From positions 12,914 to 76,913 of the forward strand of contig CAYSUK010000005.1 of assembly GCA_964434265.1 (NCBI GenBank): DNA of 64,000 nt, in the 5' to 3' direction. Of this stretch, positions 2,335 to 32,300 are shown in pieces. Within the stretch, counting starts at the first letter, position 1. Each line of letters begins with the position of its first letter. Made by a program: the position numbers and the translations under genes. A model generated the notes under the pieces. It was not told the DNA's origin and ran no database searches. It saw only the letters and a program-made list of their open reading frames with translations. Origin of the DNA: an uncultured Christensenella sp. (GTDB lineage: Bacteria > Bacillota > Clostridia > Christensenellales > UBA1242).

Positions 2335-2622
2335 TCACCTATCTTCCAATCTTTTTAGAGTACGCAACAACTTTTCGTCTCTGATTTTTTCTATCTCTTC
2401 TTCACCAAAAATCAGTTTGAGTTGGTCAGTCATATTAAGTACATCGGCAAGTTCTTCTCTGATATTATTTAGTACTTCTTCAGTCTTGTATTTTGAAATA
2501 CTTACTCGTTTTAACTTGCAAAGTTCTTTTGTGAGTTCTGCCATCTCTTCAATACACATGTTGCATTGTGCTTCATTGCCCCATGCGTCCAAAAATTTTT
2601 GATAACACTCTTTTCTATTCAT
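2335..2622 (-). CDS. small MazG-like nucleotide pyrophosphohydrolase domain protein (95 aa)
   Basis: The all-helical 95-aa ORF has paired acidic motifs (CIEEMAELTKEL ... EELADVLNMTDQL) typical of single-domain MazG/YpjD-type proteins. Its ATG overlaps the gyrB stop as TAATG, and its stop lies 6 nt before the gyrA ATG. Confidence 0.6.
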   Translation of the reverse strand: MNRKECYQKFLDAWGNEAQCNMCIEEMAELTKELCKLKRVSISKYKTEEVLNNIREELADVLNMTDQLKLIFGEEEIEKIRDEKLLRTLKRLEDR

Positions 2623-4544: not shown

Positions 4545-4717
4545 AAATTTCACCTTTATATTATGGGTTTAGCCCCATTTTGATAGCATAATTATAACAC
4601 ATTTATTTAATATAACAAACTAATTTATATAAAATAATTAAATTTATATAATAAATATATATATTATATAATATACAATAATATAATTTGCATCACTTCT
4701 CGACAAAAAAAATGATG

Positions 4718-5257
4718 TCATCTTACGACATCATTTTCTGTTTTTTGTTTGGCATTATGTTTTTTGATATAATCATTAAACAAATCTTTTGAAACTTTTT
4801 GTTTTCTTTGTCTTTGATTGTCGCGATTTTTGATATAATCTACGACTGGACACGTGTCTTTTGTAACGTGTGTAACTTCGTATCTATCGCCTAAAAATGT
4901 AGACGAAACTTTTTCAAACATATATTTATTATTGTAAATATTAAGTTTGCTAAAATTTTTTAGCGACATATATTTTACAGGTTTTGTTTGTTCTTCAATA
5001 TTCCAAGTTTTTGTAAACTTATTGTAGCTATGGCATTTGCCATTACAAACAATATGCACGCCTATATATCCTAGTGCCATATACAAAAATTGGTTCTCCG
5101 AACCACTCCAGAATTGAGTTTTGCCGGTGTGTGATAATTCTTCCATTTTATCGACGATTGTTTTGGAATATTTGCCACCGTTTTGGCTATCTCTAAATAT
5201 GTCGTCAAAGAGTAATTTCTCGTTTGGCTTACTGATTAAAACATAACTATTTTTCAT
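4718..5257 (-). CDS. hypothetical protein (179 aa), basic C-terminal tail
   Basis: Long ORF with no motif I recognise. A hairpin (AATGATGTC ... GACATCATT) overlaps its 3' end. Confidence 0.55.
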   Translation of the reverse strand: MKNSYVLISKPNEKLLFDDIFRDSQNGGKYSKTIVDKMEELSHTGKTQFWSGSENQFLYMALGYIGVHIVCNGKCHSYNKFTKTWNIEEQTKPVKYMSLKNFSKLNIYNNKYMFEKVSSTFLGDRYEVTHVTKDTCPVVDYIKNRDNQRQRKQKVSKDLFNDYIKKHNAKQKTENDVVR

Positions 5258-5374: not shown

Positions 5375-6463
5375 ATGAAAATACGCAGTCTCGAACTTAA
5401 CAATTATCGCAACTATCAAAACCAACAAATATACTTCGGCGACCATGTGAATGTGCTTGTGGGTAAAAATGCACAAGGCAAGACTAATATGCTTGAAGGG
5501 GTTTTTTTGTGCGCAATAGGTCGTAGTCCACGTACATCAAAAGATAAAGAACTCATAAAATGGAATGCATCATTTAGTAAAATTACACTCGAACTCACAA
5601 AATGTACTGGCGACAAAAAAATAGAAGTATATCTATTCAATAATCAAAACAAGGCCATCAAGATAAATGGTTTTCCTATAAAACGTATGGGCGAACTTAT
5701 GGGTGAACTCAATGCGGTGTATTTTTCACCAGACGAGATGAAACTTGTAAAAGAGAGTCCTGATGAGAGACGACGTTTTATGGATATAGATTTGTCGCAA
5801 TTTGACAAAAATTATTTTTACAATCTAAACAAATACAATCTTATTCTAAACCAACGTAACAAACTACTCAAATCGTCATATAGTAATCCAAAAGTGATAT
5901 CAGACACCATAAGCATCTGGAATGAACAACTTGCAAGTGTGGGTTGTAAAATAATCAAATCTAGACTCGGGCTTATAGAGAGTCTGAAAAAATACGCATC
6001 GGCATGTCAAGAGTATCTGACTGACAGTCGCGAATCACTCGAACTTACCTATACTGGTTTTGTCGGAGAAAGTGAAGACCAATTAAAACAAATGCTTTTG
6101 GACGGATATGTAAGTTCGTTTGAAAAGGATTTGAGCCTTGGATATACGACGGTTGGGCCACACAGAGACGACATTAAGATACTACTAAACGGCATAGATG
6201 TGCGACATTTTGGCTCGCAAGGCCAACAACGTACCGTTGCACTCGCACTCAAACTTGCCGAGCTTGAAGTATTTAACGACAATTTTGGCGAGTATCCTGT
6301 ACTTCTGCTTGACGATGTACTTAGCGAACTTGATGAGCGACGTCAATTAAAGCTTCTAAACAAAATTCAAAATATCCAAACAATAATTACTTGTACGGCA
6401 TTTCCATTTGATGTCAAAGCAAACAAATTTGAAGTGGAAAATGGCAACATAAAAGTGCTGTAG
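5375..6463 (+). CDS. recF: DNA replication/repair protein RecF
   Basis: Contains LELNNYRNY, Walker A GKNAQGKTNMLEG, the signature GSQGQQRT and Walker B LLLDDVLSELD. A GAAGG ribosome-binding site lies upstream. Confidence 0.93.
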   Translation: MKIRSLELNNYRNYQNQQIYFGDHVNVLVGKNAQGKTNMLEGVFLCAIGRSPRTSKDKELIKWNASFSKITLELTKCTGDKKIEVYLFNNQNKAIKINGFPIKRMGELMGELNAVYFSPDEMKLVKESPDERRRFMDIDLSQFDKNYFYNLNKYNLILNQRNKLLKSSYSNPKVISDTISIWNEQLASVGCKIIKSRLGLIESLKKYASACQEYLTDSRESLELTYTGFVGESEDQLKQMLLDGYVSSFEKDLSLGYTTVGPHRDDIKILLNGIDVRHFGSQGQQRTVALALKLAELEVFNDNFGEYPVLLLDDVLSELDERRQLKLLNKIQNIQTIITCTAFPFDVKANKFEVENGNIKVL

Positions 6464-6512
6464 GGGTAGACAAACAAATTATTTTTTGATAACATAATGA
6501 AAAGGAGAAATT

Positions 6513-7865
6513 ATGATACGATTAGACGAAACTTGGAACAAAGCCTTAGGCATACTAGAAAAAGAAGTGACTGCAGTGTCCTTTGACCTTTGGATAAACT
6601 CGCTTGCACCTGTCGACTTTAAAAATGGTGTATTTTATCTAAGCACAACAAGCGAGACTGCCAAGACACGTATTATAAAACTACACAGCACTCAAATACT
6701 TACAGCACTTAAAAGCATAAGTGATGAGATAAAAGATTTTGTAGTGTTTGCCCCTGACGAACGTGAAAAATACGAGACACAAAAACTTGAAGGCAACACT
6801 CAAAGTGAAGTAATCGATGAAAACAACGAACTTTGCAAGTTTAATCCAAAATACACTTTTGACTCGTTTGTTGTGGGAAACAGCAACAAATATGTTTATG
6901 CAGCATGTCGCGGAGTCGCTGAAAATCCGTTTAGCAAGATAAACCCACTATTTATCTATGGTGGTGTTGGACTTGGAAAAACACACCTACTACAATCAAT
7001 CGGAAATTATATCCGTCAAAACCGTCCCGAACTTAAAGTATTGTATGTTACTTGCAACAACTTTACAAACGACTATATAGGTTCGCTTCGCTCGGGTAAA
7101 GATTATACAAATAGTCAATTTAGAGAAAAGTATCGCAATCTTGATGTGCTCATTATTGACGATATACAATTTATTTCAAATCGCACAAGCACACAAGAAC
7201 AGTTTTTTGATACATTTAATGACCTTTATCAAAACAACAAGCAAATTATAATTGCAAGTGACCGACCACCAAAAGAGATTGCAACACTTGAAGAGAGACT
7301 TAGAAGCCGCTTTAGTATGGGGCTTATCCAAGACATACAATCGCCAGACTTTGAAACAAGGCTTGCAATATTACAAAAGAAAGCCCAACAAGATAATCAC
7401 AACGTCGACGACGAAGTTCTTACATATATTGCTGAAAATTGTGACACAAACATAAGAGAGATGGAAGGTGTACTATCAAAAGTATGTTTTTACTCCGAAC
7501 TACTTGGCAAGGAAAAAGCAACACTTGAAGATGTAGAAGAAGCACTTAAAGACCATGTTGACCACAACAAAGCCGACCTTACAGCCGAACGCATAATAGA
7601 TTGTGTTTGCAAATACTTCTCAATATCTAAAGACGACCTTGTAGGCAAAAAGAAAAACAAAGAAATAGTTGAGCCACGTCAAATATGTATGTATATCATT
7701 TGTGAAATGCTTGACCTACCACTTACATCTATTGGCGAACTATTTGGTGGCCGTGACCACACAACAGTTATACACGCTCGTGAGAAAATAACCCAAGGTA
7801 TAAAAGAAAACAACCGCATAAAAATAATAGTAAGCGACATCAAAAACATGGCAAATCGCTTATAA
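6513..7865 (+). CDS. dnaA: chromosomal replication initiator DnaA
   Basis: Contains the AAA+ Walker A GGVGLGKTHLLQSIGN, LIIDDIQF, the sensor NIREMEG, and the C-terminal DNA-binding helix GGRDHTTVIHA. An AGGAG ribosome-binding site lies upstream. Confidence 0.96.
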   Translation: MIRLDETWNKALGILEKEVTAVSFDLWINSLAPVDFKNGVFYLSTTSETAKTRIIKLHSTQILTALKSISDEIKDFVVFAPDEREKYETQKLEGNTQSEVIDENNELCKFNPKYTFDSFVVGNSNKYVYAACRGVAENPFSKINPLFIYGGVGLGKTHLLQSIGNYIRQNRPELKVLYVTCNNFTNDYIGSLRSGKDYTNSQFREKYRNLDVLIIDDIQFISNRTSTQEQFFDTFNDLYQNNKQIIIASDRPPKEIATLEERLRSRFSMGLIQDIQSPDFETRLAILQKKAQQDNHNVDDEVLTYIAENCDTNIREMEGVLSKVCFYSELLGKEKATLEDVEEALKDHVDHNKADLTAERIIDCVCKYFSISKDDLVGKKKNKEIVEPRQICMYIICEMLDLPLTSIGELFGGRDHTTVIHAREKITQGIKENNRIKIIVSDIKNMANRL

Positions 7866-8072
7866 TTGGGGATATGTGCAAAACTTTTTCGATTTATACA
7901 CAGACTTGTCCACAAATCAAAAAACAATATATTGATTAAATTTGACAAGTTTAGGCAAAATATGACACAATATATAGTGTCTAAAGAAAGTTATGCACAT
8001 TTGCACAGCACATAATAATTATAATAACTATTTAATAATATAAAATTAAAATTGAAATTAGGGGAAGAAAAT
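7866..8072. promoter_or_regulatory. candidate oriC segment: DnaA-box cluster plus AT-rich unwinding stretch
   Basis: Three 8/9 matches to TTATCCACA: TTATACACA at 7894-7902, TTGTCCACA at 7906-7914 and TTATGCACA at 7991-7999. They are followed by an almost pure A/T run at about 8011-8060. The dnaA-dnaN spacer is the classic Firmicute oriC location. Confidence 0.6.
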
Positions 8073-9173
8073 ATGAAACTCGTATGTGAAGGATTAGAAC
8101 TTAGTGATGCACTACTTAAAGTAAGTAAAGGAACTAGCAATCGTACTACAAATCCTATTTTGGAAGGAATAAAACTTACAGCTGATGAAGATCATCTTAC
8201 ACTAAGTGCAACTGACCTTGAATTATCTATTGAAAAGACCATCAGAGCCGAAGTAAAAATCGAAGGCCAAACTGTAGTTCCGGGCAAGCTATTTGCTGAG
8301 TATGTGAAAAAACTAAGCAACGAACAAATCGAACTTAACTTATCAGATAAAAACCTTTTAAATATAAAATACACCGATAGTGTGGGTAAAATTCAATGTC
8401 TAAATCCACTTGAATTTCCTACTATCAAACAACCTGACTTTAACGACTATTTTGAAATAAGTCAAAAAGACTTTAAAGCACTTATATCAAAGAGTATATT
8501 TGCTGTTGCTGTCGAAGATAGCCGACCAATACTTAAAGGTGTCAAACTTGAAGTATCTGGCAATGAGATAAGAGCGGTTGCACTTGACGGATACAGACTT
8601 GCACTTTCAAAAAAGAATATTGTAAATACTACTAGCGACTTCAATATAATTGTTCCTGCACGTAGTCTTAGCGAAATATCAAAATTACTTGAAGACAGCG
8701 ACGAACTTGTAAGAGTATTTGTTCAAAAGAATCACCTTATGATAGACCTAAACGCCACAAAAATTACTACTCGCCTACTCGATGGTGACTATCTAAACTA
8801 TCGTCAAATTATTCCACAAAACTTTAATACTACACTTATCCTAAACAAAGAACAACTTGAAGATGCGATTGAGCGTGCTTCACTTCTATCAAGGATAGAT
8901 AAAAACAACATGATAAAGTTTGACATAACAGATAAAGTTATGGTTTTGTCAAGTAAGAGTGACCTAGGAGACATTAAAGAGAATATTACTATATCACTTA
9001 CAGGTAACGACCTTACAATCGCATTTAATGCACGTTATTTTAGCGAAGCGTTGCGTTCGGTAAACGATGAGTTTTTAAAACTAAGTTTTGTATCGTCAGT
9101 TGGCCCATGTATTATCACATCAAATGAAAGCGACGAGTTTTTGTTCTTAATACTTCCAGTACGTATTGTATAA
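8073..9173 (+). CDS. dnaN: DNA polymerase III beta sliding clamp
   Basis: N-terminus KLVCEGLELSDALLKVSK..NPILEGIKL, plus LLDGDYLNYRQIIP and a C-terminal LILPVRI. The start is set at ATG 8073, downstream of a GGGGAAG ribosome-binding site; the track's TTG at 8052 is less likely. Confidence 0.93.
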   Translation: MKLVCEGLELSDALLKVSKGTSNRTTNPILEGIKLTADEDHLTLSATDLELSIEKTIRAEVKIEGQTVVPGKLFAEYVKKLSNEQIELNLSDKNLLNIKYTDSVGKIQCLNPLEFPTIKQPDFNDYFEISQKDFKALISKSIFAVAVEDSRPILKGVKLEVSGNEIRAVALDGYRLALSKKNIVNTTSDFNIIVPARSLSEISKLLEDSDELVRVFVQKNHLMIDLNATKITTRLLDGDYLNYRQIIPQNFNTTLILNKEQLEDAIERASLLSRIDKNNMIKFDITDKVMVLSSKSDLGDIKENITISLTGNDLTIAFNARYFSEALRSVNDEFLKLSFVSSVGPCIITSNESDEFLFLILPVRIV

Positions 9174-9276: not shown

Positions 9277-10317
9277 ATGGATATGAATAAAAACAACCTT
9301 GATTTGTATGTTTGTAATACTTATGACGACTATATAAATTTACGTGATAATTTTGAGCAAGATAAAGCGATGGAAGATGCTGACAAATCAGCACGTTTTT
9401 ATTTTCACTTTTCAGATAAAATAGATAATGCTAAATTATTTCTACTTGTGGACAAACAACAAAACAAACTGTTAAATTATGCATTTATAGAAAGTGATCA
9501 TGAAAGTAATTCAAATATAGTAAAGAAAGATTGTCTTTATATTGACTTTATCCAAACACCACTTGCAAAAAATATGGCAAAGGGTTATGCAAGCCGTATG
9601 TTGGATTATATTAGTGACTACGCAAGAAGAGAAGGTTATCGCAAAATTCACCTTATGGCATTGGGTAGCAATCCACGTTATTTATACTACAAGAAAGGTT
9701 TTGTAAATGTTTCGCACCCAAATAAAATGTCGGTCATGATGTACAAATATCTCGATGAAAACGACTGGGCATGTAGTGTGCTTATAAATGAAGCATTAAA
9801 CAATTCAAATCAATATATAAGTCCAAGTCAAGCCATGAAAAACATAATTAAATTAAAACAATATGATAATATGTTTGAATATGGTGTAATAAAAGAAAAT
9901 GAGTATGGCGACAAAAAAACAAATCCAGTAGAAGTTTTTGTTAAATGGGATAAGTTTGCAAATCGTCTTTACAAAACAAATTCAACAATCAAAGCATTTT
10001 GCAAAGTATTTGATAAGCCTATAGTAAAGAAAAGTGATTACAAAGAAAAGATGGCTTTATTTGAGACATTCTTTCCAGAAAGAACAAAAGAAAAAGCTCA
10101 TTTAAACAATGTTTTGGAAGGTGTAAATTTATTAAAAACATCTAAAAAATTTGATGATGAGATAAAAAGAATGCAAAAACAAAACCGACTACAAAAACAA
10201 CGTCAACTACAAAGACAAAAATGTATCAACAACCAAACACGATTGACCCAACAAATCAATCTTAACCCAACAAATAATATCAAACAGGAGAAAGTATATG
10301 AAAAGTCTCAATTCTAA
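9277..10317 (+). CDS. GNAT-like acetyltransferase domain protein with ~170-aa uncharacterised C-terminal extension (paralog A)
   Basis: GNAT motif-A-like block KGYASRMLDYISDYARREGYRKIHLMALGSNPRYLYYKKGF. The C-terminal half is unrecognised and ends in a Q/K/R-rich tail. The true start may be the second ATG at 9283. Confidence 0.6.
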   Translation: MDMNKNNLDLYVCNTYDDYINLRDNFEQDKAMEDADKSARFYFHFSDKIDNAKLFLLVDKQQNKLLNYAFIESDHESNSNIVKKDCLYIDFIQTPLAKNMAKGYASRMLDYISDYARREGYRKIHLMALGSNPRYLYYKKGFVNVSHPNKMSVMMYKYLDENDWACSVLINEALNNSNQYISPSQAMKNIIKLKQYDNMFEYGVIKENEYGDKKTNPVEVFVKWDKFANRLYKTNSTIKAFCKVFDKPIVKKSDYKEKMALFETFFPERTKEKAHLNNVLEGVNLLKTSKKFDDEIKRMQKQNRLQKQRQLQRQKCINNQTRLTQQINLNPTNNIKQEKVYEKSQF

Positions 10318-11248
10318 TAAAGAGCAAAATCTACAAATATTTGTAATTAAAAACTACGAACATTTAAAACAACTTAGAAGTTATATATCTATCGCCGAAT
10401 ACAACCAACTTATTATGGAGCGAGAAGGTTTTTTAGAAGATGGTGACAAAATAAATCCTACAGAGTATGTTTTGGTGGATACGGCTAGACACAAATTGCT
10501 TAGTCTTGCATCTGTCGAAGATTGTGAAAATGGTGTGCGACACATAAGTAGTCTTTATACTCCTGACCACACAGAACGCAAAAAAGGTTTTGCAAGTCGT
10601 GTGCTTGATGAAATATTTGAGATTTCTAAAAACGAAGGATTTAGATACATACATCTAAATGCAATGGGTGAATCTGGGAAAAGAATATATCGCAAGAAAG
10701 GTTTTGTCCCTGTAAGTCGTGATGTCGAATTTGAAACAATAGATTTTGTGTCATCGTACAAAATGCTAAACGAGAAAAACTGGCAATATAGTAAAGTGTT
10801 TTACAATGTTTTGAGAAATATTGACGGTACAAAAAAGACAGTAGCAGAAGGATTTGATGATTTAAAACCTTTAATAAGTAATGCTTATGGTGAAAATTGG
10901 GAAGGATACAACGACCCTATCTTAAATGTGATGTCAAACATTATTGAGTATTCTCGAAGCATGGAAGATAATGATTTTAAAAAGACGCTTATAAAATTAA
11001 ATCTTGATCGCAATGATGACAGTGTATCCACTCATGAATTTTTAAACAAACGTTATGATGATATAAAAGACATTTTAAATGGTGTAAGACTACTAAATGC
11101 ATCTGAAAAGTATATTGCGTCGAGAAAAGTTGATACAAAAATTGTTACTGAGACCAAAACCCAATTATCTTCTAAAAGAGCAAAAATATTAAATGTAGTA
11201 AAGAAAGATAATAAAGATGCCGTCATGGAAAGAACTTATAAGGGCTAA
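10298..11248 (+). CDS. GNAT-like acetyltransferase domain protein with uncharacterised C-terminal extension (paralog B)
   Basis: Contains KKGFASRVLDEIFEISKNEGFRYIHLNAMGESGKRIYRKKGF, which parallels paralog A. An AGGAG ribosome-binding site lies upstream, and the ORF overlaps the 3' end of paralog A by 20 nt. Confidence 0.6.
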   Translation: MKSLNSNKEQNLQIFVIKNYEHLKQLRSYISIAEYNQLIMEREGFLEDGDKINPTEYVLVDTARHKLLSLASVEDCENGVRHISSLYTPDHTERKKGFASRVLDEIFEISKNEGFRYIHLNAMGESGKRIYRKKGFVPVSRDVEFETIDFVSSYKMLNEKNWQYSKVFYNVLRNIDGTKKTVAEGFDDLKPLISNAYGENWEGYNDPILNVMSNIIEYSRSMEDNDFKKTLIKLNLDRNDDSVSTHEFLNKRYDDIKDILNGVRLLNASEKYIASRKVDTKIVTETKTQLSSKRAKILNVVKKDNKDAVMERTYKG

Positions 11249-14049: not shown

Positions 14050-15399
14050 ATGGAAGACACAATAGTAGCAATATCGACACCTATTGGTGTTGGCGGAATC
14101 TCAATAGTACGTATGAGCGGTGTTGATGCACTTAAAATTGCATCGCAAGTTTTTTCGTGTAAAACCAATGTGATGGAATTTACTCCTAGATATATGTATT
14201 TTGGTTCTTTCAAACTTAAAGATTATACTGAAAAATGTCTATGTGTATATTTTAAAGCACCATATTCGTATACAGGTGAAGATTTGGTTGAGTTTCAATG
14301 CCACGGCGGTGTTGCTATTACCAAAGAGATACTTACTACTCTACTCTCTCATGGCTGTCGACTTGCTGATGGTGGTGAATTTACAAAACGAGCATTTTTA
14401 AATGGTAAAATTTCTCTTGACGAAGCAGAAGGTGTGATGGACGTAATATCTGCTGAGAGTGATTCCGAACTTAAAGCGGGATACAACCTAATGGAAGGAA
14501 ATCTTCATACAGTTGTTTCCAGAATTCAAAAAGAACTTACGGATACTATCGCGTTTCTTGAAGTTGTGTTTGATTATCCCGAACATGATATCGAAGAGAT
14601 TACTACTAAAAAAGTTCGTGGTCAAGTCGAAGATATACTAAATCAAATTACTACACTTATAGATACTCACAGCACGGGTATGCAAATCAAAAACGGTTGT
14701 CGCGTGGTTATACTTGGTAGGCCCAATGTCGGCAAGAGTTCGCTGATGAATGCCCTACTAAATTATGACCGTGCAATAGTCACTGATATTCAGGGTACAA
14801 CACGTGACACCCTTGAAGAGACTTATGTGTATAATGGTGTTAAGTTTGTTTTGACTGACACTGCCGGGGTTAGAGAGAGTGATGACAAGGTAGAAAAAAT
14901 AGGAATTGAAAAAGCAAAAAGTAGTATCAAATCTGCCGACCTTATATTATTAGTACTTGACGGAAGTCAAAAATTGTCGTCAGAAGATGAAGAAATAATT
15001 AAACTTGTAAAAAATAAAAAAGTGTTAGTTGTTGTCAATAAAATAGACCTTTCTGACAATATCGTATTAGATAATTACAAATTCACCGATGTTTTGCGTG
15101 TAAGTGCTACAAACAAAACTAATATAGATAATGTGAAAAAAACTATATACGATAAGATAGTTGATGAAAATATTATTAATAGCAATGTTGTTATTACATC
15201 GACTCGACACTACTCTATTTTGTGTCGTGCTCAAAAGATTTGCAAAGATATTTTAAGTGGAATAGATAATGGAAATAGTGTAGAACTCATCTCTATTGAC
15301 TTAAACAATTTGTGGTTGACTTTAGGTGAAATAACTGGTGAAACCAATAATGAAGAAATAATAAATTCGATATTTAAAAACTTTTGTGTAGGGAAATAA
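14050..15399 (+). CDS. mnmE: tRNA modification GTPase MnmE
   Basis: N-terminus DTIVAISTP.G.GGISIVR, G1 GRPNVGKSSLMN, DTAG, NKIDL, and the C-terminal FCVGK. The start is set at ATG 14050 (MEDTIVA). Confidence 0.94.
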   Translation: MEDTIVAISTPIGVGGISIVRMSGVDALKIASQVFSCKTNVMEFTPRYMYFGSFKLKDYTEKCLCVYFKAPYSYTGEDLVEFQCHGGVAITKEILTTLLSHGCRLADGGEFTKRAFLNGKISLDEAEGVMDVISAESDSELKAGYNLMEGNLHTVVSRIQKELTDTIAFLEVVFDYPEHDIEEITTKKVRGQVEDILNQITTLIDTHSTGMQIKNGCRVVILGRPNVGKSSLMNALLNYDRAIVTDIQGTTRDTLEETYVYNGVKFVLTDTAGVRESDDKVEKIGIEKAKSSIKSADLILLVLDGSQKLSSEDEEIIKLVKNKKVLVVVNKIDLSDNIVLDNYKFTDVLRVSATNKTNIDNVKKTIYDKIVDENIINSNVVITSTRHYSILCRAQKICKDILSGIDNGNSVELISIDLNNLWLTLGEITGETNNEEIINSIFKNFCVGK

Positions 15400-15401
15400 C
15401 T

Positions 15402-15851
15402 ATGGATAAATGGGATAAAAGATTTATGGATATGACACGACTTGTTGGTTCGTGGAGTTCGTGTATAAAGGACGATAGACATGTAGGGGCGATTATTGTT
15501 AAAAACAAACGTATTCTTACGACTGGTTATAATGGTGCTCCAAGCGGAATAAAAAGTTGTGCCGAACGTGGCGAGTGTATTCGTATGCGTGATGGTGTAC
15601 AATCTGGTACTCGTGCTGAGTATTGTTATGCTGTGCATGCCGAACAAAATGCTCTCATACAAGCTGCAAAACTTGGAATTAGTGTAGATGGGGCCACACT
15701 TTATTGTACCCACCAACCTTGTTCGATGTGTACTCGCCTTATAATCAATGCGGGAATCAGTCGTGTTGTGTATGGCGAAGGTTATCCTGACGAATTCTCT
15801 TTAAAACTATTTAATGAGTCGAATGTAATACTTGATAAATACGAGGAATAA
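15402..15851 (+). CDS. dCMP deaminase (ComEB-type cytidine/deoxycytidylate deaminase)
   Basis: Zinc motifs HAEQNAL and PCSMCTRLIINAG. The start is set at ATG 15402 (MDKWDKRF), 2 nt after the mnmE stop. Confidence 0.88.
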   Translation: MDKWDKRFMDMTRLVGSWSSCIKDDRHVGAIIVKNKRILTTGYNGAPSGIKSCAERGECIRMRDGVQSGTRAEYCYAVHAEQNALIQAAKLGISVDGATLYCTHQPCSMCTRLIINAGISRVVYGEGYPDEFSLKLFNESNVILDKYEE

Positions 15852-15852
15852 A

Positions 15853-17715
15853 ATGAAATTTACTAATTATGATGCAATAGTGGTGGGTAGTGGGCATGCT
15901 GGTTGTGAGGCATGCCTTGCTCTTGCTAGAAAAGGAATAAAAACATTACTACTCACGTTAAATTTGGATAGCATTGCTTTTTTGGCGTGCAACCCATCTA
16001 TTGGTGGCACAGCAAAAGGCCAACTTGTAAGCGAAATTGATGCGCTTGGTGGTGAAATGGGTATTATTGCTGATAAAGCAACCATTCAAAGACGTATGTT
16101 AAACTCGTCTAAAGGTGCTGCTGTTCAAAGTTTGCGTGCTCAAACTGACAAAATTAAGTATCATTCGTATATGAAAGAAGTACTTGAGAAACAAAAAAAC
16201 CTTGATATAAAACAAGGCGAAGCAAGTGAAATATTAGTCGAAAATGGCTACGTTGTGGGATTAAAGACGACTCGTGGAGAAGAATATACTTGTAAAGCAG
16301 TTGTTGTTTGTACCGGTGTTTATCTTAATAGTCGTGTTATTGTGGGTACTCATATCAAAGATGAAGGTCCAAATGGCTTTGCAAATGCTACTGAACTTAC
16401 AAAATCACTTATCAAACTTGGTTTTAAAATAAATCGTTTTAAGACAGGGACTCCAGTACGTATTCATAGCGACAGTGTAGATTATAGTAAAATTGAAGTG
16501 CAAAAAGGTGAAGACAATATTCAAACTTTTTCCTTTGTTACAAAGAAAAAACCACGTAATGTAGCCGATTGTTGGCTTACATACACAACACCTAAGACAC
16601 ATAAAATCATACTCGACAATCTTGACAAAGCGCCTATGTATTCGGGTATTATAAATTCTGAAGGTCCAAGATATTGCCCGAGTATCGAAACTAAAGTTGT
16701 GCGATTTGCTGATAAAGATAGACATCAATTGTTTTTAGAACCGGAAGCCCTTAGTACAAAAGAAATGTATGTACAAGGTTTTAGTACTAGTATGCCAGTC
16801 GATATTCAATATGATATGGTTCATTCGGTTATTGGACTTGAGAACGCTCACATAATGCGTGATGCTTATGCTATAGAGTATGACTGTATCGATAGTACCC
16901 AACTTTATCCTTCTCTTGAATATAAAAATGTGCATGGAATTTTTACTGCTGGTCAAATAAACGGAACAAGCGGATATGAAGAAGCAGGAGCTCAAGGTCT
17001 TATCGCTGGTATAAATGCAGGGCAATATATATTGGGTCTCCAACCACTTATTTTAAAACGTAGCGACGCATATATTGGCGTACTTATTGATGACCTTGTA
17101 ACAAAAGGAACAAACGAACCATACCGAATGATGACGTCGCGTGCAGAGTATCGACTTTGGCTTAGACAAGACAATGCTGACATTAGACTTACAGATATTG
17201 GCAGAAAGTATGGACATATTGACAAAAAACGTTATTTAATATATAAAAGCAAGATTGATAAAATAACATCATTACTAAACGAAAGTAAAATAATACAAGG
17301 TGAAAAGTCGCCACTTGCCAAACTATTTAAAGAAGTAGGTGAAACCTTTGTACAAAACGGATTGACTATATTTGATGCATTAAAGCGTCACAATATAAAC
17401 TTTACTAATATTATTAAGTATTATCCTGATTTTGCAAAATATCCAAGTGATGTATTAAATCAAGTTGAGATTATGTCTAAATATGAAGGGTATTTGGCTC
17501 GTCAAGAAAAACAAATCGAACAAAGCCTTAAAAATGAGAATGTAAAGCTTGATGTAGATATTGATTATAGTAAAATTAAAGGGCTTAGAATAGAAGCTCA
17601 ACAAAAACTAAACCAAATCAAACCACTTAGTATTGGACAAGCTAGTCGTATTTCTGGTGTAAGTCCTGCTGATATTGCAGTGCTATTAGTGTATGTTAAA
17701 AGTAAAAATAACTAA
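15853..17715 (+). CDS. mnmG: tRNA uridine 5-carboxymethylaminomethyl modification enzyme MnmG (GidA)
   Basis: FAD motif YDAIVVGSGHAGCEA, plus GPRYCPSIE and SRAEYRLWLRQDNAD. A GAGGA ribosome-binding site precedes ATG 15853. Confidence 0.95.
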   Translation: MKFTNYDAIVVGSGHAGCEACLALARKGIKTLLLTLNLDSIAFLACNPSIGGTAKGQLVSEIDALGGEMGIIADKATIQRRMLNSSKGAAVQSLRAQTDKIKYHSYMKEVLEKQKNLDIKQGEASEILVENGYVVGLKTTRGEEYTCKAVVVCTGVYLNSRVIVGTHIKDEGPNGFANATELTKSLIKLGFKINRFKTGTPVRIHSDSVDYSKIEVQKGEDNIQTFSFVTKKKPRNVADCWLTYTTPKTHKIILDNLDKAPMYSGIINSEGPRYCPSIETKVVRFADKDRHQLFLEPEALSTKEMYVQGFSTSMPVDIQYDMVHSVIGLENAHIMRDAYAIEYDCIDSTQLYPSLEYKNVHGIFTAGQINGTSGYEEAGAQGLIAGINAGQYILGLQPLILKRSDAYIGVLIDDLVTKGTNEPYRMMTSRAEYRLWLRQDNADIRLTDIGRKYGHIDKKRYLIYKSKIDKITSLLNESKIIQGEKSPLAKLFKEVGETFVQNGLTIFDALKRHNINFTNIIKYYPDFAKYPSDVLNQVEIMSKYEGYLARQEKQIEQSLKNENVKLDVDIDYSKIKGLRIEAQQKLNQIKPLSIGQASRISGVSPADIAVLLVYVKSKNN

Positions 17716-17716
17716 C

Positions 17717-17746
17717 AAAAAATGGCTTTATAAAGCCATTTTTTGT
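17717..17746 (+). terminator. intrinsic terminator after mnmG
   Basis: Perfect palindrome AAAAAATGGCTTTA / TAAAGCCATTTTTT. Confidence 0.75.
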
Positions 17747-17772
17747 ATTTTAATAATTAATATAAGCATAAT

Positions 17773-17788
17773 TGTTTCACGTGAAACA
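17773..17788. promoter_or_regulatory. parS site 1 (16/16 TGTTTCACGTGAAACA)
   Basis: Exact symmetric parS 16-mer, embedded in a 24-bp perfect palindrome at 17769-17792. Confidence 0.85.
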
Positions 17789-17834
17789 ATTAATTATTGT
17801 TATTAATTTTAAATGCTGTATTTTTTGTTCTTAA

Positions 17835-17850
17835 AGTTTCACGTGAAACA
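17835..17850. promoter_or_regulatory. parS site 2 (15/16, AGTTTCACGTGAAACA)
   Basis: One outer-position mismatch. Confidence 0.7.
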
Positions 17851-17894
17851 AAAAGGATATGTAATCTTATAAAATATATGTAGTGTATTTCAAA

Positions 17895-17910
17895 TGTTTC
17901 ACGTGAAACA
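17895..17910. promoter_or_regulatory. parS site 3 (16/16)
   Basis: Exact 16-mer inside a 32-bp perfect palindrome at 17887-17918. Confidence 0.85.
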
Positions 17911-17987
17911 TTTGAAATGTTATTTGATAGGTATTGTATTTCTACATATAAATGATTTTTATAATAATTAGCTTAATCGCAACAGAT

Positions 17988-18003
17988 TGTTTCGCGTGAA
18001 ACA
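17988..18003. promoter_or_regulatory. parS site 4 (15/16, TGTTTCGCGTGAAACA)
   Basis: One core mismatch (A to G at position 7). Confidence 0.65.
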
Positions 18004-18087
18004 AACTATTTTGTTTTTTTATACTTGTTTTAATGGTATCTTTTAAATTGCCAAGTATTCTTAATTGTGTATTATTTAAATTCCTAA

Positions 18088-18103
18088 TGTTTCACGTGAA
18101 ACA
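18088..18103. promoter_or_regulatory. parS site 5 (16/16)
   Basis: Exact 16-mer. Confidence 0.85.
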
Positions 18104-18200
18104 GTATTATTATAATGATTTGCGTGAGTTGTCTTTTAATTGTGTTTGATATTAATTGTAAAATATGTCTATTAGGTGTCTTTGTGTTTTTAGAGTTAAA

Positions 18201-18216
18201 TGTTTCACGTGAAACA
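18201..18216. promoter_or_regulatory. parS site 6 (16/16)
   Basis: Exact 16-mer inside a 22-bp palindrome at 18198-18219. Confidence 0.85.
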
Positions 18217-18285
18217 TTTTTAAGGTTGTTTTGATTAAGGATTATTATCAAGTCTATTCTTTAGTAGTGTTGTGTATAATTACAT

Positions 18286-18301
18286 TGTTTCACGTGAAAC
18301 A
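18286..18301. promoter_or_regulatory. parS site 7 (16/16)
   Basis: Exact 16-mer inside a 30-bp perfect palindrome at 18279-18308. Confidence 0.85.
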
Positions 18302-18363
18302 ATGTAATACTAAATTGTTTTGTTTCGGTGATGGTTTGTGATATACTATGCATATAGGAGATA

Positions 18364-19068
18364 ATGATGAATTTTTTAGAACTTTTTAATAAATATGACA
18401 TTCATTTAAGCGAAGAACAATATTTAATGTTTGATACATATTATAATATTTTAATTGAAGAAAATGAAAAGTATAATCTTACAGCGATAACAGATAAAGA
18501 AGGAGTTTGGTTAAAACATTTTTTAGATAGTGTTTTACCATATAAACAATTTAAACCTAATAGTACGGTACTTGATATTGGTGGTGGGGCTGGATTTCCG
18601 TCAATTGCATTAAAGATTATTAGACCTGATTTAAAATTTGTAGTAATTGATAGCGTAGAAAAGAAGACTAGATTTATGCAAATGGTAATCAATAAACTAG
18701 GATTAAAAGAAATTGAAATATTACATGCTAGATGCGAAGATTTGGCAAAAGGACCTAAATATAGGGAAAATTTTGACTATGTAATAGCACGTGCTGTTGC
18801 TCCGCTTACTACATTGCTTGAGTATTGTGTGCCATTTTGTAAGATTAGTGGTCAATTAGTGTTGTATAAAGGTGATAGATATTTAGAAGAAATTAATAAT
18901 ACGACAAACACTTGTAGATTGCTTGATTGTAGCTTGATTAAAACAGATAAGATTTATGTGGCTGAAGGTGATTATACTAGATATTTTCTTGTTTATGGGA
19001 AGAATAGTTCTACATTATTAAAGTATCCACGTGGACAAAACAAACCTAGAAATAACCCATTAAACTAA
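18364..19068 (+). CDS. rsmG: 16S rRNA (guanine527-N7)-methyltransferase RsmG (GidB)
   Basis: Contains NLTAITDKEGVWLKHFLDS, the SAM motif VLDIGGGAGFPSIALKI, and VIARAVAP. It sits between mnmG and parA as in conserved synteny. Confidence 0.92.
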   Translation: MMNFLELFNKYDIHLSEEQYLMFDTYYNILIEENEKYNLTAITDKEGVWLKHFLDSVLPYKQFKPNSTVLDIGGGAGFPSIALKIIRPDLKFVVIDSVEKKTRFMQMVINKLGLKEIEILHARCEDLAKGPKYRENFDYVIARAVAPLTTLLEYCVPFCKISGQLVLYKGDRYLEEINNTTNTCRLLDCSLIKTDKIYVAEGDYTRYFLVYGKNSSTLLKYPRGQNKPRNNPLN

Positions 19069-19084
19069 TGTTTCACGTGAAACA
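19069..19084. promoter_or_regulatory. parS site 8 (16/16), immediately after rsmG stop
   Basis: Exact 16-mer. The 22-bp palindrome at 19066-19087 includes the rsmG TAA stop codon. Confidence 0.85.
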
Positions 19085-19269
19085 TTATAAGTGTGTAAGT
19101 AAAGTTATACTTAATATCTCATAATGAGTGTGATATCGTATGTTTTTAATCTGATTTAAAAGATATTTTAAAAACATATCAAAATAGATTTTGAGATTTT
19201 TTTATTATAATATATAATAAAAATACAACTAAATAACAACTTTTAATAAAATACAAGAATGGAGGGCTT

Positions 19270-20043
19270 ATGAATAAAGTTATATCATTTATAAATCAAA
19301 AAGGCGGGGTAGGGAAAACAACTACGTGTGTTAATCTATCTGCATATCTTGCTGAAATGGGCAAAAAGGTTTTAGTAATTGATATGGATCCACAAGGTAA
19401 TGCTAGTAGTAGCTTTGGAATAAACAAAGAAGACAAACATAAAACAATATACAGTGTAATTGTAAATGAAGATGATATTAAAGATGTAATATTAAAAACA
19501 CAGTTTAAAAATCTTGATATTATTCCTTCAGATGTTGATTTGGCAGGTGCTGAAATTGATTTGGTTGAGATTCCAAATCGCGAAAAAGTCCTACGTAAAG
19601 CCATATCTAAAATAAAAGATAACTATGATTATATATGTTTGGATTGTCCGCCATCGCTTGGACTTATTACAGTAAATGCTCTTACTGCTAGTGATAGTGT
19701 GATTATTCCTATCCAATGTCATTATTTTGCACTAGAAGGATTAAGTGTATTGATGTATACTTTAAAACTTGTTAAAAAGCATTTAAATCCTGATGTTGAT
19801 GTAGAAGGTGTAGTACTTACAATGAAAGACGGTCGTAGTAATCTTGACCAATCAGTAGCTGACGATATAAATAAATACTTTAAAGAGAAAGTGTATAAGA
19901 CAATTATTCCACGTAATGTTAGACTTGCTGAAGCTCCAAGCTTTGGAATGCCAATTTCTAGTTATGACCCAAAAAGCACAGGTGGAATAGCATATAAAAA
20001 TCTAACAGAAGAATTTTTAAAAAGGAATATAAAGGGGGAATAA
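19270..20043 (+). CDS. parA: chromosome partitioning ATPase ParA/Soj
   Basis: Deviant Walker A NQKGGVGKTTT, plus VIDMDPQGNAS and DCPPSLG. A GGAGGG ribosome-binding site lies upstream. Confidence 0.94.
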   Translation: MNKVISFINQKGGVGKTTTCVNLSAYLAEMGKKVLVIDMDPQGNASSSFGINKEDKHKTIYSVIVNEDDIKDVILKTQFKNLDIIPSDVDLAGAEIDLVEIPNREKVLRKAISKIKDNYDYICLDCPPSLGLITVNALTASDSVIIPIQCHYFALEGLSVLMYTLKLVKKHLNPDVDVEGVVLTMKDGRSNLDQSVADDINKYFKEKVYKTIIPRNVRLAEAPSFGMPISSYDPKSTGGIAYKNLTEEFLKRNIKGE

Positions 20044-20044
20044 T

Positions 20045-20968
20045 ATGGCAGCAAATAAAGGTTTGGGCCGTGGGCTCGGCTCATTATTGGGTATTTTTGA
20101 TAATGATGAAGAAAATGTATTAATTAATAAAAAAGGTGAACTTATTGACAAAAAAGCAGAAGTTTCTGACAAAAAGTCAGATAATATTAACAATAACGTA
20201 ACGGAAATAGCGATTTCGCTTATTGACAACAATCCTGACCAACCACGTAAAAATTTTGACCCTACTGCAATAAAGGAACTTGCAACATCTATAAAAGAAT
20301 ATGGAGTAATCCAACCTATTATTCTTAAAAAGAACGGTGATAGATACATAATTGTTGCGGGCGAACGTCGTTTTAGAGCAAGTAAACTAGCTGGGCTTAA
20401 AGTAATACCTGCGATTGTTCGTGATTATACTGACAACCAAGTAAAGGAAATTGCACTCCTTGAAAATATTCAAAGAGAAGACTTAAATCCTATTGAGACT
20501 GCACGTGCAATGAAAGAACTTCTTACTCTTTATGGCTGGACTCAAGAGGTTTTGGCTGACAAACTAGGTAAAAGCCGTCCAGTGGTTGCAAACTATGTAA
20601 GATTATTGTCGCTTCAACCCGAAGTAATAAAGATGATAGAAAGCGGAAAACTTAGTGCTGGACATGCAAGAAGTCTGGTTGTTATTGATGACCCACGTGT
20701 CCAAGTTAAACTTGCCGAACAAGCGGTAAATCGTAAAATTACGGTCAGAGATATGGAAAAGGCTGTAAGAGATGTTACAAATCCAAAGTTGAAAAAGTCA
20801 CAAAAAACTTCTATGACTGATGAGATGCAAGAATTTTTGGAAATTATGCAACATAAATTCAGAACAAAAGTTAGCCTTCTAGGCAATGAGAAAAAAGGTC
20901 GTATTATTATTGATTATTATAATAGTGATGATTTAGATCGCATTTATGATATGATAAATCGTATTTAA
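20045..20968 (+). CDS. parB: chromosome partitioning protein ParB/Spo0J
   Basis: Contains GLGRGLGSLL, the ParB box IQPIILKK...YIIVAGERRFRASKLAG, and an HTH at QEVLADKLGKSRPVVANYVRLL. The start lies 1 nt after the parA stop. Confidence 0.94.
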   Translation: MAANKGLGRGLGSLLGIFDNDEENVLINKKGELIDKKAEVSDKKSDNINNNVTEIAISLIDNNPDQPRKNFDPTAIKELATSIKEYGVIQPIILKKNGDRYIIVAGERRFRASKLAGLKVIPAIVRDYTDNQVKEIALLENIQREDLNPIETARAMKELLTLYGWTQEVLADKLGKSRPVVANYVRLLSLQPEVIKMIESGKLSAGHARSLVVIDDPRVQVKLAEQAVNRKITVRDMEKAVRDVTNPKLKKSQKTSMTDEMQEFLEIMQHKFRTKVSLLGNEKKGRIIIDYYNSDDLDRIYDMINRI

Positions 20969-29378: not shown

Positions 29379-32300
29379 ATGAAAAAGGAGAAAGTCAAAA
29401 AGACCAAACCTAAGAAAAAGTTTTCGCTATGGCGAATGCTTAGTTATGTAGGCTGTTATGTGTTTGTCACATTTGCAGTGGCTTTTGTTGTGGTGTCGGT
29501 AAATAGCTCGACATATTCTTTCACGCCTCCTTCACTTGACGACAATGAGACTGTGCAAAGTTCGCTTCTTGGAAATATGGTATCAAATATCATGACCGTC
29601 GAAGACATGACGACTTCGCTCGGACTTACTATTCAAAACGGCGACACAAACATAAATATCACAGGCGATGTCCAATTAAAAATATACGAAGAATTTTCCG
29701 GAGTCGAAGCAAAAGCAAATCTTTCTGTAGGTTATAATGGGACAGTTGTTGATGTGCAAGTAATGTATACTGACAAGTTGTACTTGACACTTGATAATCG
29801 TACATTTGTGCTTGATTTAAATGATGGATTTGAGGGTATTTTTGGAATACTAAATGTATTAGGTGTCGAATTAGACCTAAATCTTGACGACTTAATGGGC
29901 AGTCTTGATATGAGTATACTTGATACACTTGGCGACTATATTACTGAGTCAACTTTGGAAAATGGTTATGCACTTTCTATTGACTATAATGGGCTGTCAG
30001 CGACAGTTGTGCTTGATAGCGAATACAATATAGTTTCGGTGTCAGCACCATCGCTTAGTTTTGATGGCTGGGATATCTCACTAAATCTTGGAGTAGAGTC
30101 GCAAAACCAAGGGCTTGTATTTGACGAAGTAGTGGGTGACACAAGCCTTAGCCCAATTTTCAGACTTGTCGAGTGTGGGCTAAACACATTTAAAGGCATA
30201 AATTATACAATAAACACAAATATAAATTATGACAAATACAACTTCGGTTTTGACGCTGTTGTAGATGGCAGTGATGCAAAACTTCTTACAAATATCAGCG
30301 GACAAAACTTAGCATTCTATCTAAAAGATGGCATAGGATATGGTGATTTTGGTGCTATTAAAATCAAAGGCGGCATGGACGATATAAACAAAGTAATTGA
30401 TATCGTGACCGACCTTGTTCCTGATGATATGATTCCGGATTTTGATATTGATATGGACATGGATACTATTCTTGGTCTTGTGCAAAAGGCAATTTCGCAA
30501 AACTGGAACATAGTAGGTGATGAAGATGGTCTCGCATTTGAGTTTGATGGCAATATCCTAAACATAACTTATCAAAACGACAAAATATCTAATATAGAAT
30601 TTGATATATGTGGTGTTACGGGTAGTATTAGCCTTGCAGAAAATACAAACAGTATTGTTGTGCCTGAGCAAAAATATATGCAAGTGGGCGACCTTGCCGA
30701 CTTTATCCGTCCTGTATATAATATAGTTTGCCTTGACCGAATAAATGCAACAGCAGATATCATGCTTGATGGCAAAACTTACGACTTAAATATTATGTTT
30801 GATAAAGCAACAAATAGGGTAAGTGCTAATACAAACGTATATAATAAGGTTGTCAAATTTGATTATTTTGACCACACTTTGTATCTTCAAATCGACGACG
30901 TAAGAGTATGCACTCCTACAAGCGATGTGATGGGGCTAGTGGTTTATGTATTGCAAAACTACTGTGGTGATATTAGTGTTGATGACCTAAAATCAGCATT
31001 TGAAAACGAACTTACACTTGATGTAGAAGCAAATAAATATAGCTTTGCATTTGGTGGTGTAAACTTAGATTTTGAAATCACAAACGATGAGATAAGTGGT
31101 CTTTCAGTTGTTGTTGGGGATATATGTGCAGAGATGACTTTGACTTACAATGACATGACTCCACTTGTTGATATTGATGTAGATGCATATACTACACTTG
31201 ACGTAACAATGGAAAATCTCCAATATATATTTGGTCTTGTGAAAGAATATATTGAAGGTGGCGAATATAATTTTGATATTGACTTTGAGTACGGCGAGTA
31301 TGCACTTAGCGGATATATCGGTCTAAACAATAATGATTTGGCATGCGACCTTAATATATCGGCATTTGGATATGATGTTCGCATAATTGTGAGTGACAAA
31401 ATCGGTCGAGTATATATAAAAGACCTTGCAATATCTTGCGAGTATGACACTTTGGCTGGTTTGGTCGCATATGTATTTAAAACTTTGGATATAAACATAG
31501 ATGTTGATAAATATCTTGCAAATTTGCCAGAATTTGATGCACAAGCAATTGAAGACTTACTAAACAATGTGACTTTGTCATATACAAACAGTACTTTTGT
31601 AATCGGTTATGAAGATATCACACTAAATGTTAGACTTGGACTAAACACAATTAAAAATATCTTTATGACATATAAAGATTTTAGTGTAAATATCAAACCC
31701 ACATATGCAAAAAATGTTATTATTCCAAATGTAGAGTATATCTATATTGAAGATATTGTAGACATTTTAAATAGCGTAAAACCTATCATTCAAAACAAAT
31801 ATTTGACAGCAAATTTTGAAATAAATATAAATAATATTGAAGTGTCGGGTGTAATCAAGTTTGATTATACTGACATGCGATTGGAAGCTACAATACATGT
31901 ACTTGACCAAACAATAAATATCGATTATATCGACGGAAAAATATATATCGCATATGACGGAGTTAAACTGGCTTGCAAGACAGAAGATATACTTGACCTT
32001 ATTAAAGGATATATTGATATTGAAGACAAAATATCTGATTTAAAATCAGAAGATATTACTGCCGATGATATTCTTGACAAACTTGCACTACTAAGTATTA
32101 TCAAAACACAAAATGGTTTTGATATTACATACGACACTTATACATTCAAACTCACTCTTGCTGATGGTATACTAAGTGGTCTTACATATGGCGAAGATGT
32201 AAATATTACATTCGACCATAGTACTCCAGTATTTGAAAATATCGACACTAATGCATATCAATATGTAGACCTTACATACGCAAATGTAAGTAGTCTTGTC

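Follow-up and report, generated by a model that had tools for sequence, protein, structure and literature searches.

Why does the spacer in front of a chromosomal parAB operon hold a tight group of near-identical 16-bp palindromes, and why do several of them lie within much longer perfect palindromes? The locus in question lies in a stretch of 64,000 nucleotides (hereafter the window) from an uncultured Christensenella sp. (contig CAYSUK010000005.1), in which eight such palindromes bracket the rsmG gene directly upstream of parA and parB. It is very probable that these eight palindromes form the chromosomal centromere (parS), a compact loading zone for the ParB protein that is encoded 1–2 kb downstream. 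The longer palindromes are a separate matter, and are only partly explained.

When the 64-kb window was searched for the 16-mer TGTTTCACGTGAAACA with up to two mismatches allowed, eight sites were recovered, six exact and two matching at 15 of 16 positions, just where the initial annotation had placed them, and no further match was found anywhere in the 64 kb. The 16-mer is the fully symmetric form of the parS consensus TGTTNCACGTGAAACA, as given in PMC7022226. From 100 dinucleotide-preserving shuffles, the chance expectation is 0.09 matches per window; the shuffle maximum was one, and none of the 100 shuffles reached eight. Allowing three mismatches added a single, unrelated match at 56496, and the window has 18 GTTTCAC half-sites, 15 of them within 17700–19100. 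The eight sites are as follows.

parS 1, 17773..17788, exact, within a 24-bp perfect palindrome at 17769–17792 (4 bp of extension per side)
parS 2, 17835..17850, 15/16 (AGTTTCACGTGAAACA, A at position 1), palindromic extension 0
parS 3, 17895..17910, exact, within a 32-bp perfect palindrome at 17887–17918 (8 bp per side)
parS 4, 17988..18003, 15/16 (TGTTTCGCGTGAAACA, G at position 7), extension of 1 bp per side
parS 5, 18088..18103, exact, extension 0
parS 6, 18201..18216, exact, within a 22-bp palindrome at 18198–18219 (3 bp per side)
parS 7, 18286..18301, exact, within a 30-bp perfect palindrome at 18279–18308 (7 bp per side)
parS 8, 19069..19084, exact, after the rsmG stop, within a 22-bp palindrome at 19066–19087 (3 bp per side)

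The genes around them follow the order mnmG, seven parS, rsmG, one parS, parA and parB.

15832..17715, plus strand, mnmG (gidA), NCBIfam TIGR00136, 826 bits
18364..19068, plus strand, rsmG (gidB), 16S rRNA m7G527 methyltransferase, TIGR00138, 170 bits
19270..20043, plus strand, parA (soj), Walker-type partition ATPase, Pfam AAA_31/CbiA/MipZ and NCBIfam ParA-family matches
20045..20968, plus strand, parB (spo0J), TIGR00180, 189 bits, Pfam ParB_N and HTH_ParB

The first seven sites all lie in the mnmG–rsmG spacer (17716–18363, 648 bp, 24% G+C), and the centre-to-centre distances between successive sites 1 to 8 are 62, 60, 93, 100, 113, 85 and 783 bp. The earlier description of seven sites 60–113 bp apart in AT-rich non-coding DNA is thus borne out by measurement, as are the perfect palindromes of 24, 32 and 30 bp and the absence of any site from parB, every detected site being intergenic. 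The eighth site had been said to overlap the rsmG stop; this is true of its 22-bp palindrome, which takes in the TAA, but not of the 16-mer, which begins one base past the stop codon. An origin of the array by tandem duplication can be rejected, since Tandem Repeats Finder reported no periodic unit, the spacing of sites 1–7 is irregular and the inter-site DNA is unique, the likeness between copies stopping within a few flanking bases.

The protein encoded by parB carries the features expected of a parS-binding clamp. Its best solved-structure matches are to complexes of ParB with cytidine triphosphate (CTP), namely 7BNK (Myxococcus) and 6SDK (B. subtilis; E = 1e-49), over about 195 residues at E about 1e-50, both of which cover the CTP-bound N-terminal domain and the DNA-binding domain, and its C-terminal dimerisation domain matches that of B. 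subtilis Spo0J (5NOC). The N-terminus reads MAANKGLGRGLGSLLG and contains the ParA-stimulating LGRGLG peptide, while the CTPase motifs GERRFRA (the GxxRxxA box) and ENIQRE (the ENLQRE motif) align to those of the ParB–CTP structures. As judged from these matches, the CTPase fold that is needed for clamp loading at parS is predicted to be present. The partner Walker-type ATPase, ParA, adjoins it at 19270–20043.

The DNA-binding specificity of this ParB can also be read from its helix-turn-helix (HTH) motif, GKSR...N....GHAR, in which the spacing is identical to that of the Q162/G170/N178/R204 landmarks. With residues numbered as in Caulobacter, counting from the conserved Q162 and G170-K171-S172, the window ParB has R173, N178, Y179, S184, G201 and R204. 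It is known that R173 and G201 specify parS, that Noc has Q and R at these two positions, and that the Noc-type set is Q173/K179/K184/R201 (Jalal et al. 2020, PMC7383237). By its specificity residues the protein is therefore classed as a predicted parS-type ParB. Noc-binding sites (NBS) were considered as another identity for the palindromes and rejected, because the sites match parS and the sole ParB-family protein of the window has R, Y, S and G at the Noc positions. The NCBIfam Noc model scores 233 bits on this protein, under its cut-off of 315 bits; the window encodes one ParA and one ParB, and no second ParB or Noc paralogue was found by tblastn of the 64 kb.

Conservation in relatives points in the same direction. 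We have compared 16 relative loci that include the mnmG–rsmG region, with ParB proteins 65–90% identical to that of the window and full-length loci of 10.9–12.9 kb; L003, L005, L146, L147 and L153, all of which end before mnmG, were left out of this count. A long non-coding mnmG–rsmG region is found in all 16 loci and parS cores are kept in 16/16, at one to five per locus with up to two mismatches allowed, or two to five where both genes are still adjacent; in L010 and L011 a Band_7 gene has been inserted between mnmG and rsmG, and one core remains. Further parS sites occur in several of these loci at the rsmG stop (directly after it in L001, as in the window), inside rsmG or in the rsmG–parA spacer. 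The spacer DNA around the cores does not align between relatives. Between the window and L001, only TTTGTGATATACTAT and an AGGAG block before rsmG are conserved in the spacer besides the parS cores.

Since cores are conserved within spacers that do not align, the sites appear to be under purifying selection, with fast birth and death of individual copies. The gain or loss of single sites could not be traced by spacer alignment, these spacers having diverged except at the cores and the rsmG promoter and ribosome-binding-site block. The window holds the largest array among the close relatives (7+1 sites); one Clostridia metagenome-assembled genome (MAG) with a 67% identical ParB (L129) has eight sites between rsmG and parA. 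The ParB homologues come from uncultured, mostly gut-derived Clostridia/Clostridiales MAGs, and when metagenomes were scanned for further close relatives, the ParBs that came back were all distant, with at most 43% identity. In one sub-lineage with a 77% identical ParB (L004 3935–4219; L151, L152 and L154 2935–3219; L153 283–567), the central CpG of most parS sites in the spacer shows a C-to-T or G-to-A transition, giving CACATG/CATGTG for CACGTG, although the first site of L151 retains CACGTG. This recurrent CpG-to-TpG change looks like 5-methylcytosine deamination or tolerance of the central position by ParB.

It might still be argued that the palindromes are a generic dispersed repeat of the repetitive extragenic palindromic (REP) type, or operators of an unrelated CACGTG-binding regulator of rsmG–parAB, for the array does occupy a promoter-bearing intergenic region and CACGTG is a common palindromic core. 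Such an origin is extremely unlikely, since no copy lies outside 17773–19084 in the 64 kb, the ParB consensus is matched along all 16 bp, parAB accompanies the array in many phyla and the cognate ParB carries parS-type specificity residues. A dispersed REP-like element, which the initial annotation had named as the finding that would overturn it, is accordingly excluded within the 64 kb, all copies lying within 1.3 kb. Taken together, the gene context, the features of ParB and the conservation in relatives support the earlier identification of a predicted ParB-binding parS array next to parAB.

The array is also origin-proximal, as chromosomal parS sites are. Its surroundings within the window include the following genes, assigned by NCBIfam.

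2622–4553, minus strand, gyrB
5375–9173, plus strand, recF, dnaA and dnaN (dnaA–dnaN, 6513..9173)

The 186-bp dnaA–dnaN spacer contains three DnaA-box-like 9-mers (at 7894, 7906 and 7991), and the cumulative GC skew is lowest at about 4–8 kb of the window; this spacer is the probable oriC. On the strength of the skew minimum and the DnaA-box-like 9-mers, the array lies about 10 kb from the probable origin, with dnaA and dnaN 9–11 kb away. The mnmG–rsmG spacer itself was considered as an oriC segment and rejected, as it has one DnaA box only (one mismatch, 18271).

After dnaN come yidC, jag, mnmE, a deaminase-domain gene and then mnmG, and after parB a CvpA-like gene, yyaC and ftsH, as assigned by NCBIfam. 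Measured against the B. subtilis paradigm, this origin region is rearranged, with gyrB on the minus strand and recF immediately before dnaA–dnaN; the yidC-jag-mnmE-mnmG-rsmG-parA-parB block follows dnaN on that gene's strand, whereas in the paradigm it precedes dnaA on the other replichore. The deaminase-domain gene (15384–15851, plus strand, 155 aa, Pfam dCMP_cyt_deam_1 and MafB19-deam, of the cytidine/deoxycytidylate type) lies between mnmE and mnmG and overlaps both; it is found in L001, L002, L004, L148, L149, L151, L152 and L154, is absent from the more distant L006–L009, and may be a TadA-like tRNA deaminase joined to a tRNA-modification operon. Three open reading frames at 9277–10317 and 10298–11248 (the dnaN–yidC interval) and 4718–5257 (minus strand) have no NCBIfam or Pfam family match, and another at 29379–37475 (plus strand), of 2,698 aa, has no Pfam match at E ⩽ 1e-5.

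By analogy with characterised ParB proteins, ParB dimers would recognise each 16-bp parS through the HTH, bind CTP through the GERRxRA box, close as a clamp and slide to the neighbouring DNA, freeing the site for the next dimer. Eight sites within 1.3 kb, at least 60 bp apart and so occupiable together, would give a high, redundant and buffered loading rate near the origin. The resulting ParB domain probably spans the origin-proximal region, because dnaA and dnaN are only about 10 kb away; it would be moved by ParA, whose ATPase is expected to be stimulated by the N-terminal LGRGL peptide of ParB, and would probably recruit SMC. Three further features, found by a two-strand terminator scan (the first) or read from the sequence, bear on how transcription might meet this loading zone.

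17715..17746, both strands scanned, hairpin with A and T tracts, perfect 32 bp with a 14-bp stem and a 4-nt loop
18320..18347, plus strand, putative rsmG promoter, TTGTTT, 16 bp, TG-n-TATACT (extended −10)
19191..19218, plus strand, parA promoter-like site, TTGAGA, 16 bp, TATAAT, 11 of 12 matches

The first of these (DNA fold −13.8 kcal/mol, z = −6.3) is likely a bidirectional intrinsic terminator that would end mnmG transcription before the array. Since the seven spacer sites lie between this terminator (17715–17746) and the putative rsmG promoter (about 18320–18347), the array is expected to be free of transcription, which would then not sweep ParB off it. About 20 bp separate parS 7 from the putative rsmG −35 element downstream of it, and parS 8 precedes the strong parA promoter-like site by about 110 bp. 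Because of this proximity, ParB at sites 7 and 8 may modulate the two promoters and so tune rsmG and parAB expression. An Rfam scan of 17000–20000 at E ⩽ 1 gave only chance-level matches, far under the gathering scores, and so no known RNA family; of the public sequencing data, a single DNA run contained 6% of the words sampled, and the search gave no RNA run.

Some points weigh against the centromere interpretation as it stands. A single parS suffices for segregation in several model species (PMC7022226, PMC7333895), and the advantage of eight sites over one is something we infer. In addition, ParB recognition does not explain why sites 3 and 7 lie in long palindromes.

How unusual is such an array? 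Clusters of chromosomal parS near parAB are known from Corynebacterium glutamicum and Myxococcus xanthus, and the same is true of Caulobacter crescentus, Pseudomonas aeruginosa (parS1–4) and Streptomyces coelicolor (20–23 sites). These model clusters share with the window the 16-bp consensus, the origin-proximal place beside parAB, the redundancy of sites and the CTP-dependent ParB clamp (predicted from motifs for the window). The window is packed more tightly, with seven sites in about 530 bp as against several kb to about 200 kb in the models. In B. subtilis, the parS sites are scattered over the origin-proximal domain and one lies inside spo0J. The two systems are alike in the Spo0J-homologous ParB, the consensus and the order yidC-jag-mnmE-mnmG-rsmG-(noc)-soj-spo0J; the window differs in that all its detected sites are intergenic with none in parB, noc is absent and the gene block is downstream of dnaN on the same strand. 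B. subtilis has 10 parS sites in all (PMC7022226).

Tight packing of this kind is, in contrast to the models, common in unstudied genomes. In a scan of 185,579 species, each represented by one genome, for three cores GTTTCACGTGAAAC separated by 70–100 bp (84–114 bp spacing), we found at least 119 such stretches. The listed arrays come from Bacillota (Lachnospiraceae, Oscillospiraceae, Erysipelotrichaceae, Selenomonadaceae and uncultured 'Bacilli'), Actinomycetota (Streptomyces, Arthrobacter, Microbacterium, Bifidobacterium, Gordonibacter and Enteroscipio), Patescibacteria, Bdellovibrionales, Treponema/Spirochaetales, Alphaproteobacteria (Bradyrhizobium, Hyphomicrobiales and Rickettsiales), Planctomycetes (Aeoliella, Pirellulaceae), Acidobacteria, Chloroflexi and Margulisbacteria. 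Among these listed loci many hold at least seven sites in 600 bp with up to one mismatch, matching or exceeding the seven of the window: 13 in L094, 10 in L017 and L103, nine in L033, L072, L078 and L128, and eight each in L015, L016, L029, L050 and L125. As located by tblastn with the window proteins, the arrays commonly lie upstream of parA, in the mnmG–rsmG or rsmG–parA spacers, or beside dnaA; one Lachnospiraceae MAG (L021) even has the same layout as the window, with six parS between mnmG and rsmG. Neither the density of the array nor the perfection of its copies, both put forward as unusual, is therefore out of the ordinary: the window array is a real but ordinary centromere, with similarly dense arrays in more than a hundred species of many phyla.

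The centromeres of some plasmids offer another comparison, that of the F plasmid (sopC) consisting of 12 tandem repeats of 43 bp. Like sopC, the window has many ParB-type binding palindromes within a few hundred bp beside a partition operon; unlike sopC, it is not tandem, with irregular 60–113 bp spacing and unique inter-site DNA. A plasmid-type centromere of tandem iterons was accordingly rejected, Tandem Repeats Finder having detected no head-to-tail unit of fixed length. Strictly tandem arrays were seen elsewhere, in L094 (34–909, 18 sites, 43-bp period, a Deltaproteobacteria MAG), L017 (5384–5894, 10 sites at 55 bp) and L043 (4279–4516, seven at 37 bp; both 'Bacilli' MAGs), and these do resemble sopC-type centromeres, unlike the window. 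The 3.50-Mb Hyphomicrobiales MAG chromosome OZ245032.1 has two dense arrays of 49–50 bp period, L033 402–816 (nine sites) and L044 4386–4744 (eight), which lie near 0.41 Mb and 2.16 Mb, some 1.75 Mb from each other; in neither 8-kb array stretch was parA, parB, rsmG, mnmG, mnmE, dnaA, dnaN, yidC or jag detected. It would be unusual for one replicon to carry two centromere-like arrays so far apart.

The extended palindromes call for a separate account. We have pooled 745 non-redundant parS sites from 129 sequences (the window and loci from the set L001–L130) and compared the symmetry of their flanks with a null in which each left flank is paired with the right flanks of other sites of the same locus. 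Extension by at least 4, 6 and 8 bp per side was observed at 21%, 11.7% and 6.3% of the sites, as against 4.8%, 0.95% and 0.3% under the null, an excess of about 12-fold at 6 bp or more. The bases next to the 16-mer are A-rich at −2 and −1 of each half-site (0.58 and 0.63), giving a 20-bp consensus AA-TGTTTCACGTGAAACA-TT across phyla; this A bias is already absorbed by the null. The extended palindromes are real and non-random (11.7% versus 0.95%), yet they are widespread among the parS sites of arrays, and the claim that they are unusual at this locus does not stand. In the window, three of the eight sites are extended by at least 4 bp per side.

Extra symmetry is unnecessary for ParB binding. 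The palindrome arms are very varied in sequence, some containing G+C, and extension is about equally frequent at edge sites (11.7%) and inner sites (10.4%), so that a role as array-edge markers only was rejected; because the arms differ so greatly and edge and inner sites are alike, sequence-specific recognition by ParB is also an unlikely cause of the extensions. The initial annotation had suggested cruciforms, and it could be proposed that negative supercoiling drives the long palindromes to extrude and that they then serve the centromere as structural or topological elements. Their arms of 15–16 bp are AT-rich and have no spacer between them, and the single-strand hairpins of sites 7 and 3 fold at −10.7 and −11.9 kcal/mol, respectively (−3.5 kcal/mol for the unextended site 5). 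Extrusion would, on the other hand, destroy the duplex parS that the ParB dimer recognises, just the three window sites mentioned have arms extended by 4 bp or more, and the literature searched yielded no paper tying parS to cruciforms or to extended palindromes, all of which makes this role very improbable.

A connection with transcription termination is seen most clearly in the relatives. Where mnmG is followed by a canonical hairpin terminator of its own, as in the window, L001 and L009, the first parS has little or no extension. In L002, L148/L149, L004, L151, L152, L006, L007 and L008, which have no separate mnmG terminator, the first parS tops a hairpin with a 12- to 13-bp stem, preceded by an A-run and followed by a T-tract (for example AAAGGAT-parS-ATCCTTTTTTG), and no other intrinsic-terminator-like element was found between mnmG and the first parS of these loci. 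Such hairpins have the predicted form of an intrinsic terminator, and resemble the bidirectional type (A-tract, hairpin, T-tract) after mnmG; parS hairpins in general are unlike typical intrinsic terminators in that the core stem is weak and AT-rich and most sites are without a T-tract.

The flank stems have also changed in a concerted manner. Compensatory A-T to G-C changes are seen in two lineage pairs (L002 versus L149, and L004/L151 versus L152); in an alignment of nine related sequences, 98% of the flank-stem cells are paired and 12 cells have changed on both sides, a covariation reached by none of 500 shuffles and approached by none of the slid registers, which all score far lower. No G-U intermediates were found among these changes in the nine sequences, and for this reason template switching at the DNA level explains the double changes equally well. 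Between L148 (2422) and L149 (2427), which share the same ParB (P0008), one base in the right arm of the first site differs (tcGcttt versus tcTcttt), so that in L148 the stem is broken by one mismatch and the perfect extension falls from 7 bp to 2 bp. This difference is a within-population polymorphism in a terminator-like stem.

These observations might be taken to mean that the palindromes serve first of all as hairpins in RNA, ending or insulating transcription, and that ParB loading is secondary or absent. Besides the terminator-like first sites and the compensatory changes, it can be cited that T-runs are commoner at sites extended by at least 6 bp (29%) than at unextended ones (13%; low-GC loci across phyla, p about 1e-6), and that parS 3, alone among the window sites, passes the terminator scan (plus strand). 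We nevertheless regard it as very unlikely. The invariant part is the 16-bp parS core and not the stem flanks, and the bare core hairpin is as weak as that of site 5; about 79% of the pooled sites are extended by less than 4 bp; the window already has its canonical mnmG terminator at 17715–17746, and no T-tract follows immediately on the palindrome at sites 1, 6, 7 and 8. Seven serial terminators in an untranscribed spacer would make no sense, and the missing G-U intermediates leave the compensatory changes open to the template-switching explanation. As far as the predicted hairpins go, the RNA-hairpin account has good support at the first site of the relatives and weak support at the sites of the window itself.

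A different account holds for the palindromes only, and leaves the identity of the array untouched: the flank symmetry could be a neutral by-product, with the 16-bp palindrome nucleating fold-back (quasi-palindrome) template switching, or with sites born by inverted duplication of a half-site plus its flank. Arms that differ greatly and in part contain G+C are nevertheless perfectly Watson–Crick symmetric, inner and edge sites behave alike in many phyla, and longer extensions become gradually rarer, which is what decay following each event would give. The double changes without G-U intermediates, the L148/L149 palindrome broken by one base beside an identical ParB, and the fast turnover of site positions between relatives all fit as well. 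The association with T-runs, and the complementary pattern of either a separate terminator or an extended first site, suggest selection in a subset of sites. We consider this neutral origin a serious contender, at somewhat under an even chance.

With more reserve, we suggest that parS sites in dense arrays may often be dual-purpose, the ParB-loading palindrome being built into a longer hairpin that would terminate or insulate transcription and keep RNA polymerase out of the loading zone, with flank symmetry selected in many phyla. This is a tentative proposal, to which the alternative is that flank symmetry is a trace left when new centromere sites arose through fold-back template switching. 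For the palindromes of the window, insulating RNA hairpins and/or fold-back template switching are the most likely of the options still live.

The flank-symmetry excess, and parS sites set in terminator hairpins with compensatory changes, are apparently undescribed in the literature searched. It has been noted that the number of parS sites varies from 1 to 20–23, and why they cluster has been posed as a question (PMC7333895, PMC7022226). Very tight arrays of 5–13 sites in at most 600 bp, beside parAB, rsmG, mnmG or dnaA, are widespread and poorly represented by the model organisms studied, and their spread bears on these open questions of parS number and clustering (PMC7333895). For the uncultured gut Clostridia-like lineage itself, the locus can be annotated with confidence as a centromere and its partition genes.

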